Origin: a virus
Lineage: Duplodnaviria; Heunggongvirae; Uroviricota; Caudoviricetes
Strand: one strand, 5' to 3'
DNA: 11,785 nucleotides
Virus record (IMG/VR): IMGVR_UViG_2695420889_000011
Span: 1 to 11,785 of that record
Both the position numbers and the translations under genes were made by a program. The notes under the pieces are model-generated. The model was given only the letters and a program-made list of their open reading frames with translations, did not search any database and was not told the origin of the DNA. Below, piece by piece: positions 1-985 of this stretch. Position 1 is the stretch's first letter. Each line of letters starts with the position of its first letter.

Positions 1-207
1 ATGGCGGAGAGCATCAATGGTCTTTACAAAGCGGAGGTAATACACCGTAAGAGCTGGAAAAACCGTGCAGAAGTGGAACTGGCCACACTCACGTGGGTGG
101 ACTGGTATAACAATCGACGATTGCTGGAAAGGCTGGGCCATACTCCTCCGGCAGAAGCAGAAAAAGCTTATTATGCTTCCATCGGAAACGATGATCTGGC
201 AGCCTGA
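1..207 (+). CDS. IS3-family transposase (DDE/rve type), C-terminal fragment; gene continues upstream of the window
   Basis: Frame-1 ORF runs from the window edge to TGA at 205-207. The translation ...NGLYKAEVIHRKSWKNRAEVELATLTWVDWYNNRRLLERLGHTPPAEAEKAYYAS... has the conserved C-terminal tail pattern of IS3-family OrfB transposases. Assigned from memory of the family, not from a search. Confidence 0.7.
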   Translation: MAESINGLYKAEVIHRKSWKNRAEVELATLTWVDWYNNRRLLERLGHTPPAEAEKAYYASIGNDDLAA

Positions 208-230
208 GTTCACAGATAAAACACTCTCCA
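1..230 (+). mobile_element. Right end of an IS3-family insertion sequence (right boundary approximate)
   Basis: Transposase 3' end followed immediately by the resumption of a recombinase reading frame at about 215-230, so the IS terminus must lie between 207 and about 230 (candidate terminal CA at 211-214). The left end and target-site duplication are outside the window, so the exact end cannot be fixed. Confidence 0.5.
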
Positions 231-985
231 GGAAACCCGGGGCGGTTCAACTTCGCGACATCACGGCAGGAGAACTAGAACAATATGCTGCTGGCTTACG
301 GGAAAAATTACGTCCGTCAACAGTAAACCGTATCCTCGCAATATTGTCCAAAATATGCTCTCTGGCAGTACGTGCTGGATGGATCACGCATTCCCCGATG
401 TCACATGTCCGCTATCTGAAAGAAAATAACATTCGCTATCGCACACTATCAGCGACAGAAATCCCGCGCTTTATTGACGCGGCAACAGCGCTGCAAACAC
501 CGGCAGCTGATTCTATATTGCTTGCTCTTTATACGGGGATGCGTATTGGTGAGGTATGTACCCTGAAATGGGAGTACTGGCACCTGGATATGCATCAACT
601 CATACTGCCTGATACAAAGTCCGGACACCCTTTCACCTGCCCACTTGCACCTCCAGCCATTGCAGTTGTCCAGTGCCAGCAGGACCTGATGCTCAGCAAA
701 ACTTACATTTTTCCGCGACTAACCGACAATGCCCGCCCTCTGGCATATCCGCGTGCAACCTTTGCCCGTATTTGCCGGGATGCCGACATTGATAACCTGC
801 GGATGCATGACCTGCGCCGTACCTTTGCCACCCGGGTACTACAGGCGACCGGGGATATTGCAATCGCTTCCCATCTGCTAAATCACCATTCACTCACGGC
901 GACCCGTCGCTACGCTTTTCACAATGCAGCGACATCACACGCAGTGGTTTCTCAGGTCATTGAAAGTTATGACACGAAAAAATGA
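215..985 (+). pseudogene. Tyrosine recombinase (XerC/D-like integrase), 5'-truncated by the IS insertion
   Basis: The frame-2 ORF (65-985) is recombinase-like only from about nt 215 onward. It carries the catalytic-domain signatures LYTGMRIGEV (box I Arg), MHDLRRTFAT (H-x-x-R) and LLNHHSLTATRRYAF (His...Tyr nucleophile). About 50 N-terminal residues of a typical XerC-like protein are missing, and the upstream part of the ORF is read-through into IS sequence. Confidence 0.7.

Follow-up and report, generated by a model that had tools for sequence, protein, structure and literature searches.

The closest described counterparts of the locus reported here are pipolins, mobile elements of enterobacteria, and the insertion sequence (IS) IS629. 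The pipolin literature names one integrase gene IntP2, which is normally followed by an excisionase gene, and regards another integrase, IntSXT, as chiefly responsible for integration (PMC11551731). Pipolins of E. coli O145:H28 have already been reported to be without recombinase activity, and O145:H28 strain RM9872 and strain RM12761 are entries in the published set of pipolin-bearing E. coli (PMC7385651). IS629 makes large adjacent deletions that leave the IS itself intact, a process promoted by IEE (PMC9330008, PMC9943667), and both iee and many IS629 copies are present in O145:H28 (PMC5567499). Here we describe an 11,785-bp stretch of DNA (the window; IMG/VR record IMGVR_UViG_2695420889_000011) that opens with the right end of an IS629 copy directly joined to the remnant of an IntP2-type integrase gene in a degraded pipolin.

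The window matched E. coli 99-3311 at 100% (NZ_CP101310.1, 2071552-2083336, minus strand), and over its first 1200 bp several O145:H28 genomes, RM9872 among them, agree with it at every position. By sequence comparison, the host chromosome was assigned to the E. coli O145:H28 type and the polymerase-bearing element to a degraded pipolin at tRNA-Leu. Our reading, to which we give a probability of about 85%, is that IS629 and an adjacent 3.53 kb deletion truncated the pipolin integrase IntP2 in O145:H28-type E. coli. Positions in compared loci are given below with the L number of the locus.

The IS629 copy

Positions 1..249 (+ strand) are the last 249 bp of a complete 1310-bp IS629 of the IS3 family, the other 1061 bp of which lie upstream of the window. 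In the source genome the complete IS (L004 7940-9249) is identical at 1310/1310 positions to the feature 'insertion sequence: IS3 family IS629' of LC567824.1, a Stx2a phage record. A first-pass annotation, made from the letters of the window, had taken the frame at the window start for the C-terminus of an IS3-family transposase, and this was borne out: positions 1..207 (+ strand) hold the last 68 codons and the stop (TGA, 205-207) of IS629 OrfB, with Pfam matches to rve_3 (E=5e-9) and rve_2 (E=1e-7). The complete element carries orfA and orfB with a -1 programmed frameshift, HTH_Tnp_1 being matched on OrfA and rve_3/rve_2 (DDE) on the OrfB C-terminus, and PGAP labels the joined coding sequence 'IS3 family transposase, programmed frameshift'.

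The IS boundaries were set by comparison with IS-free relatives. PapRG-06-5 was first used for the left flank and was dropped, as its 95.5% identity left the final nucleotides ambiguous; ESDR8 (100%) was substituted. The right terminal inverted repeat, which the first-pass annotation had proposed to seek against IS3-family references, was found at 225..249 (+ strand; terminus ...GGTTCA), the right end at 249 reading ...CCCGGGGCGGTTCA. Its reverse complement, TGAACCGCCCCGGGTTTCCTGGAGA, agrees with the left end, TGAACCGCCCCGGGAATCCTGGAGA, at 23/25 positions, and both ends carry TGAACCGCCCCGGG..., as expected of the 5'-TG...CA-3' termini of IS629. The 42 bases past the transposase stop at 207 are still IS629, and the 'CA' at 248-249 is common to the IS629 end and the recombinase gene. 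A recombinase start at about 215, as originally placed, was therefore not upheld: the IS extends to 249, the recombinase sequence begins at 248/250, and its frame is open from 65. The bases next to the copy read TGG-IS-ACT, and the flank comparison found no 3-bp target-site duplication around it. The duplication is missing because of the associated deletion; its absence bears on the history of the copy and not on its identity as IS629.

The deleted interval

The recombinase gene is represented by positions 248..985 (+ strand), which correspond to codons 132-376 plus the stop (983-985) of an IntP2-type tyrosine integrase (PF00589, E=2e-22). The intact gene in the IS-free relatives RM12761, RM13516, PapRG-06-5, H10407 and ESDR8 is 1131 nt long and encodes 376 aa, and window 248-1007 is identical to RM12761 and PapRG-06-5 at 760/760 nt. 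Codon Q132 is window 248-250 (CAA); 131/376 residues are lost and 245 kept, with no further mutations in the remnant. The original observation that a recombinase gene without its 5' end abuts an IS3-family element was thus sound. The loss had been put at roughly 50 N-terminal residues, an underestimate that arose because the shorter XerD served as yardstick, its residue 7 aligning with residue 95 of the intact protein.

The sequence on the far side of the IS does not belong to the integrase gene. The left flank is hsdM without its first ~69 codons (~208 nt). Of the intact relatives, ESDR8 is the closest: it matches at 100% on both sides, as far as the base that precedes the IS and onwards from the start of the recombinase sequence, and the 3531-3533 bp that it has between these points are missing in the window genome. 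The missing 3.53 kb comprises the start of hsdM (~208 nt), one hypothetical gene of 1233 nt and two smaller ones, and int codons 1-131 together with the sequence upstream of them, including the integrase promoter. The contiguous arrangement hsdM-hypothetical-hypothetical-int was found in 235/5426 complete E. coli genomes. At least 80% of the 393 nt of the int 5' part is held by 267 complete E. coli genomes, and it is 100% identical only in RM12761, RM13516 and ESDR8; a search at >=99% identity gave 38 records, none of them a strain with the IS junction. A displaced 5' part, which had been suggested to lie elsewhere in the genome, was not found, and by these comparisons the int 5' segment is deleted rather than displaced. 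The IS-int junction occurs in nine independently assembled complete genomes, with full identity in 8 and 97.5% identity in the other, and the clade that carries it, with members from the USA and Japan, numbers 9 or more complete genomes.

These flanks bear directly on the possibility that IS629 simply transposed into the recombinase gene at codon 132, with the 5' part just past the IS, as the first-pass annotation had supposed. IS629 does insert often in this island, the copies of sister strains lying at 1661-1663, about 2145-2150 and about 1315-1318. However, a plain insertion is refuted by the flank comparison, since the left flank is hsdM and not int, the 3-bp duplication is absent, 3.53 kb is missing and the int 5' part was not found in the genome. 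We regard it as highly improbable, and it survives only as a first step before a leftward deletion.

A more serious rival is that an IS629 copy in hsdM recombined homologously with a second, like-oriented copy at int codon 132. Loss of the interval with one hybrid copy left would give the same outcome, namely one intact IS, no target duplication and both flanks truncated. Matches occur at no fewer than 38 places in the genome, almost all being further IS629 copies, and sister strains have extra IS629 copies within 2 kb. Against this, an adjacent deletion with an intact IS is a documented IS629 outcome (PMC9330008), and the four right ends with a constant left junction described below would each need a separate insertion and recombination. 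Sequence alone does not discriminate between adjacent deletion and two-copy recombination; we judge the latter unlikely, but not to be dismissed lightly.

Nested deletions in sister strains

In sister genomes of O145:H28, the IS629 copy and its left junction are unchanged. The right junction varies, lying at window 250, 946, ~4680 or ~18026, and the last three correspond to right-hand deletions that extend 0.7, 4.4 and 17.8 kb further than in the window configuration. The right junction of RM11626-C1 is at window 946 (L008 4249/4250), and the remainder of the recombinase is gone. In strain 16003 it is at ~4680 (L009 ~4245-4249), with piPolB also gone, and in the outbreak strain RM13514 at ~18026 (L011 10950-10960), where nothing of the pipolin core is left and the early half of a P2-like prophage is missing too. 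A fixed IS and a fixed left junction combined with a ladder of right ends is the signature of IS-adjacent deletion.

Further IS629 copies occupy the same island. RM9872 carries one at window 1661-1663, inside a gene for a 212-aa protein, with a 3-bp duplication (L001 7664-8973); RM12761 has one at ~2145-2150, inside piPolB (L002 7904-9214), and ESDR8 one at ~1315-1318 (L010 8734-10048). The pipolin island is a repeated target of IS629 in sister strains, through independent insertions. RM8988-C1 and three similar genomes have a 1310-bp IS at the same locus in the opposite orientation (L005 7716-9025). It was considered as a flipped form of the window copy and rejected: it is a 95%-identical isoform with the differences spread along its length, and it joins the flanks at other points, 10 nt further in on the hsdM side and 3 nt further in on the integrase side.

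From the junctions we infer that IS629 first inserted within the hsdM-int interval, hsdM itself being the probable target. Its right end would then have been the starting point of an adjacent deletion into the integrase gene, made by a transposase- or IEE-dependent route or through recombination with another IS629 copy. Most simply, the codon-132 junction would be the first rung of the right-hand deletion ladder. The earlier impression of a recent-looking event holds in that the remnant is free of further changes, but the event is recent only in a relative sense, since its junction is found in at least 9 complete genomes and sister strains have lost more.

The integrase remnant

The remnant has kept every residue of the tyrosine recombinase series R...K...HxxR...H...Y, confirming the earlier report of retained catalytic motifs. 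In intact numbering these are R230 (542-544), K255 (617-619), H318-x-x-R321 (806-817), H344 (884-886) and Y353 (911-913). The core-binding domain, by comparison, is incomplete, with the Pfam SAM-like/central-domain match beginning only at profile position 35-39. In the AlphaFold model of a 98%-identical full-length homologue (mean predicted local distance difference test score, pLDDT, 88), a beta-sheet-plus-helix domain spans residues 1-90, core-binding helices span 94-109, 114-128, 138-149 and 154-173, and the catalytic domain extends from about 195. According to this model, truncation at residue 132 costs the protein its arm-binding domain and the first two of its four core-binding helices and leaves the catalytic domain whole.

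The gene had been classed as XerC/D-like, an assignment that had to be revised. Residue 129 of the intact protein aligns with lambda Int residue 112, distant full-length homologues carry an N-terminal PF13356 Arm-DNA-bind_3 domain, and the best structural match of the full-length homologue model was full-length lambda Int (1z1b). IntP2 in its intact form has three domains and belongs with the lambda-Int-like integrases, not with XerC/D.

Complete homologues in a large protein database are 371-394 aa long and occur across Enterobacteria and beyond. This length bears on whether the short form could be a natural gene with homologues starting near the truncation point. PGAP does call 'recombinases' of 270 aa and 195 aa here without a pseudogene flag. 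However, full-length homologues have 371-394 aa, with PF13356 in the distant ones; every gene model inspected over the int 5' part is full-length, at 1131 nt; and the first 25 residues of the 270-aa open reading frame (ORF) are IS629 sequence. A natural isoform was ruled out by the full-length homologues and by the presence of the 5' part in 267 complete E. coli genomes, and we attach next to no weight to it.

Possible expression of the chimeric reading frame

The open recombinase frame runs from 65 to 985, with IS629 sequence making up the first 61 codons. In-frame ATG codons lie at 173, 191 and 398. PGAP calls a chimeric ORF of 270 aa from the ATG at 173 (173..985, + strand; WP_072048686.1), the first 25 codons of which are IS629 sequence in a frame that differs from orfB. 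RefSeq tags this 270-aa product, which starts inside IS629, as 'tyrosine-type recombinase/integrase', and a 195-aa product from the internal M182 (L005 9171-9758) as 'site-specific integrase'; neither entry carries a pseudogene flag.

We considered whether the IS, through an outward promoter or transposase read-through, might drive expression of a truncated, active recombinase. The open frame, the three ATG codons and the retention of all catalytic residues are compatible with such a product, and outward promoters occur in some IS3-family elements, the P3R promoter of IS3 being cited in PMC8860574. No outward promoter of IS629 was described in the literature search. A promoter scan found no sigma-70-like site on the + strand of 1-1300, and no convincing Shine-Dalgarno sequence precedes the starts at 173, 191 or 398. 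The single terminator-like match in 1-1300 (240-228, - strand) is the palindromic part of the IS inverted repeat. Any product would be expected to be without the arm-binding domain and, in the model, helices 94-109 and 114-128, and its excisionase-like partner gene has lost its start. An IS-borne outward promoter, offered by the first-pass annotation as its alternative, thus found little in the sequence to recommend it, and we consider IS-driven expression of an active recombinase very unlikely.

The remnant appears to have no promoter, ribosome-binding site or start codon of its own; because it also has no arm-binding domain, it is best read as a dead gene fragment. A read-through product would be without the parts that bind arm and core sites, and catalytic-domain fragments of lambda Int have only weak topoisomerase-like cleavage activity and are not known to recombine att sites. 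It is conceivable, if improbable, that the chimeric IS-int ORF yields a protein consisting of the catalytic domain only and that this protein interferes with related integrases.

The pipolin and its other lesions

The first-pass annotation had rightly attached the recombinase to a polymerase-bearing element. That element is identified as a pipolin because its polymerase accession is shared with the listed pipolin strain RM9872: in the PGAP annotation the polymerase of the window, WP_022582033.1, is the same protein as in RM9872. The gene, piPolB (1871..4426, + strand), encodes a family-B DNA polymerase of 851 aa, annotated by PGAP as 'DNA-directed DNA polymerase'; its PF03175 match is weak on its own and under the curated Pfam cut-off. 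Between the integrase region and piPolB lies the conserved pipolin gene for the 212-aa protein (1183..1821, + strand), which has no assigned function, gave no match in a Pfam scan and is syntenic in all pipolins inspected.

The pipolin is ~19 kb long and bounded by 129-bp direct repeats that are 99.2% identical. One attachment (att) repeat is at 5804..5932 of the window, and its partner is beside yecA, ~19 kb upstream (L007 4350-4478). Within the repeat, 5878-5932 is the 3' 55 nt of tRNA-Leu, as matched to the tRNA-Leu of L003. ARAGORN found no complete tRNA in the window because the window holds just this 55-nt 3' piece, the intact tRNA-Leu lying ~38 kb further on, past a P2-like prophage that separates it from the pipolin. 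In window orientation, the annotated order is yecA, the first 129-bp att repeat and genes for a DUF262 protein, a hypothetical protein and an M48 peptidase, followed by a type I restriction-modification cluster (hsdR, a cold-shock-domain gene, a YecA-family gene, hsdS and the 5'-less hsdM). IS629, the recombinase remnant, a hypothetical gene, the family-B DNA polymerase gene, an 'Arm DNA-binding' pseudogene and another hypothetical gene come next. The second att repeat, the ~38 kb P2-like prophage, the tRNA-Leu, tRNA-Cys and tRNA-Gly genes and pgsA complete the region.

An internal stop is annotated in the hsdM remnant (L004 6624-7937, just upstream of the window) and recurs in the full-length copy of ESDR8, so that the type I restriction-modification cargo was probably inactive already. 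The P2-like prophage has its integrase gene at 6039-7040 (- strand). A short prophage gene at 9378-9664 has a frameshift annotated in the source genome and in sister strains.

Two further lesions affect the mobility genes of the pipolin, and neither involves the IS629 copy of the window. Directly downstream of the integrase remnant is the remnant of an excisionase-like HTH_17 gene (1008..1193, + strand), the intact 66-aa protein of which matches PF12728 HTH_17 (E=1.5e-8). Compared with PapRG-06-5 and H10407, a 143-bp deletion at 1007/1008 (L003 6761-6903) has taken the ribosome-binding site and first 5 codons (MYLTI) of this gene, and its remaining 61 codons come after an in-frame stop. The same 143-bp deletion is found in RM12761, whose integrase is intact.

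The second lesion concerns IntSXT, of which only the N-terminal 158 codons, the arm-binding domain, remain (4341..4814, - strand; PF13356 Arm-DNA-bind_3, E=8e-15); PGAP annotates a pseudogene with the C-terminus missing. Compared with enterotoxigenic E. coli (ETEC) H10407, in which the intact gene is 1200 nt, a 5.8 kb deletion at 4341 (L006 7239-13046) joins the piPolB 3' end to the middle of IntSXT on the opposite strand. Lost with it are the last 43 piPolB codons, the six genes in between and 242 codons at the C-terminal end of IntSXT; piPolB now ends in 28 foreign codons in place of ~43 native ones. PapRG-06-5 has this deletion as well; it is therefore older, and it defines the published 'truncated' pipolin subgroup.

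Of the features by which a pipolin is recognised, piPolB and the att repeats at a tRNA gene are present, and a complete recombinase (IntSXT and/or IntP2) is absent. As neither IntSXT nor IntP2 is complete, the element is a degraded member of the group.

Discussion

With no complete recombinase encoded, the pipolin should be unable to excise on its own, as far as its gene content indicates. The first-pass annotation had stated that the IS event would immobilise the element. The element indeed has no complete recombinase now, but that statement gave the event too much weight, since the catalytic domain of IntSXT had already been lost and the excisionase-like gene is damaged as well. The IS629 event was probably not alone in immobilising the element.

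Several points weigh against our reading of the IS629 event and its consequences. The junctions would be explained just as well by an insertion at int codon 132 with a later leftward deletion, or by the two-copy recombination. Pipolin excision was undetected even in strains with intact genes (PMC7385651), the Nucleic Acids Research (NAR) 2024 paper gives the main role to IntSXT (PMC11551731), and IntP2 is a putative mobiliser of E. coli pipolins. The argument for non-expression comes from a crude promoter scan and the want of a Shine-Dalgarno sequence, and transposase read-through may give some chimeric protein. The truncation of IntP2 by IS629 and an adjacent deletion remains our preferred explanation. 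The identities, the junctions, the missing interval, the domain content and the nested deletions of sister strains are direct observations; the order of events, the molecular route of the deletion, the lack of expression and the immobility are deduced from them.

The pipolin keeps both 129-bp att repeats, and it is conceivable, if improbable, that it moves by means of the P2-like prophage integrase in trans, together with the prophage or between att copies. We raise this because the att repeats are kept and because a tandem, apparently complete P2-like prophage has an intact integrase that targets the same tRNA-Leu. If true, a formerly autonomous element would have become a satellite-like passenger through IS629 erosion.

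All components of this locus are known: the deletion behaviour of IS629, pipolins, their two integrases, truncations, an IS near IntP2 and co-integrated prophages. It is ordinary, already-described mobile-element decay, and what is new here is the base-level resolution of one case together with a ladder of nested deletions. Its importance is limited to that of a clean, fully resolved example of stepwise IS629 erosion of a genomic island in a pathogenic E. coli lineage. The O145:H28 pipolins would follow host phylogeny because they have no working recombinase. In practical terms, the RefSeq 270-aa and 195-aa 'tyrosine recombinase' entries are fragments for which a pseudogene flag is warranted, and the nested junctions could serve as lineage markers within O145:H28.

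Comparison with known systems

The IS copy shares with IS629 (alias IS1203v) the full 1310 bp, the TG...CA ends, the 25-bp imperfect inverted repeats and the orfA/orfB frameshift. There is no difference in the IS itself, and its sole peculiarity is the pipolin target.

With the lambda Int and P2 Int heterobivalent integrases, the intact orthologue shares arm-binding, four-helix core-binding and catalytic domains and the R-K-H-R-H-Y residues, and the excisionase-like HTH gene directly downstream of the pipolin integrase adds to the likeness. Identity to lambda Int is just 18-21%, the likeness being known here from sequence and predicted fold, and the window copy differs in being without the arm-binding domain and half of the core-binding domain. 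XerC and XerD have the catalytic fold and motifs in common with the pipolin integrase, and XerA and XerD were among the sequence matches. Xer proteins, however, are ~300 aa long, have two domains and no arm-binding domain, and act at dif, whereas the intact protein here has 376 aa, with ~88 extra N-terminal residues. Unlike XerC/XerD, its gene is on a mobile element in a tRNA-Leu island and has an excisionase-like partner gene; only ~5% of complete E. coli genomes carry it. This context argues against a XerC/XerD housekeeping role, and 'XerC-like' is an annotation label rather than a statement of family membership.

The closest relatives of the whole element are the truncated enterobacterial pipolins (Mateo-Caceres & Redrejo-Rodriguez 2024, PMC11551731; Flament-Simon et al. 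2020, PMC7385651), which share with it piPolB, IntP2 followed by an excisionase-like HTH gene, and the IntSXT remnant at the tRNA-Leu att site. That subgroup also has the IntSXT-piPolB deletion, an IS near IntP2 and an adjacent P2-like prophage. In those studies the IS near IntP2 was inferred largely from assembly gaps, whereas here the IS, its junctions, the deleted interval and the nested series are resolved in closed genomes.

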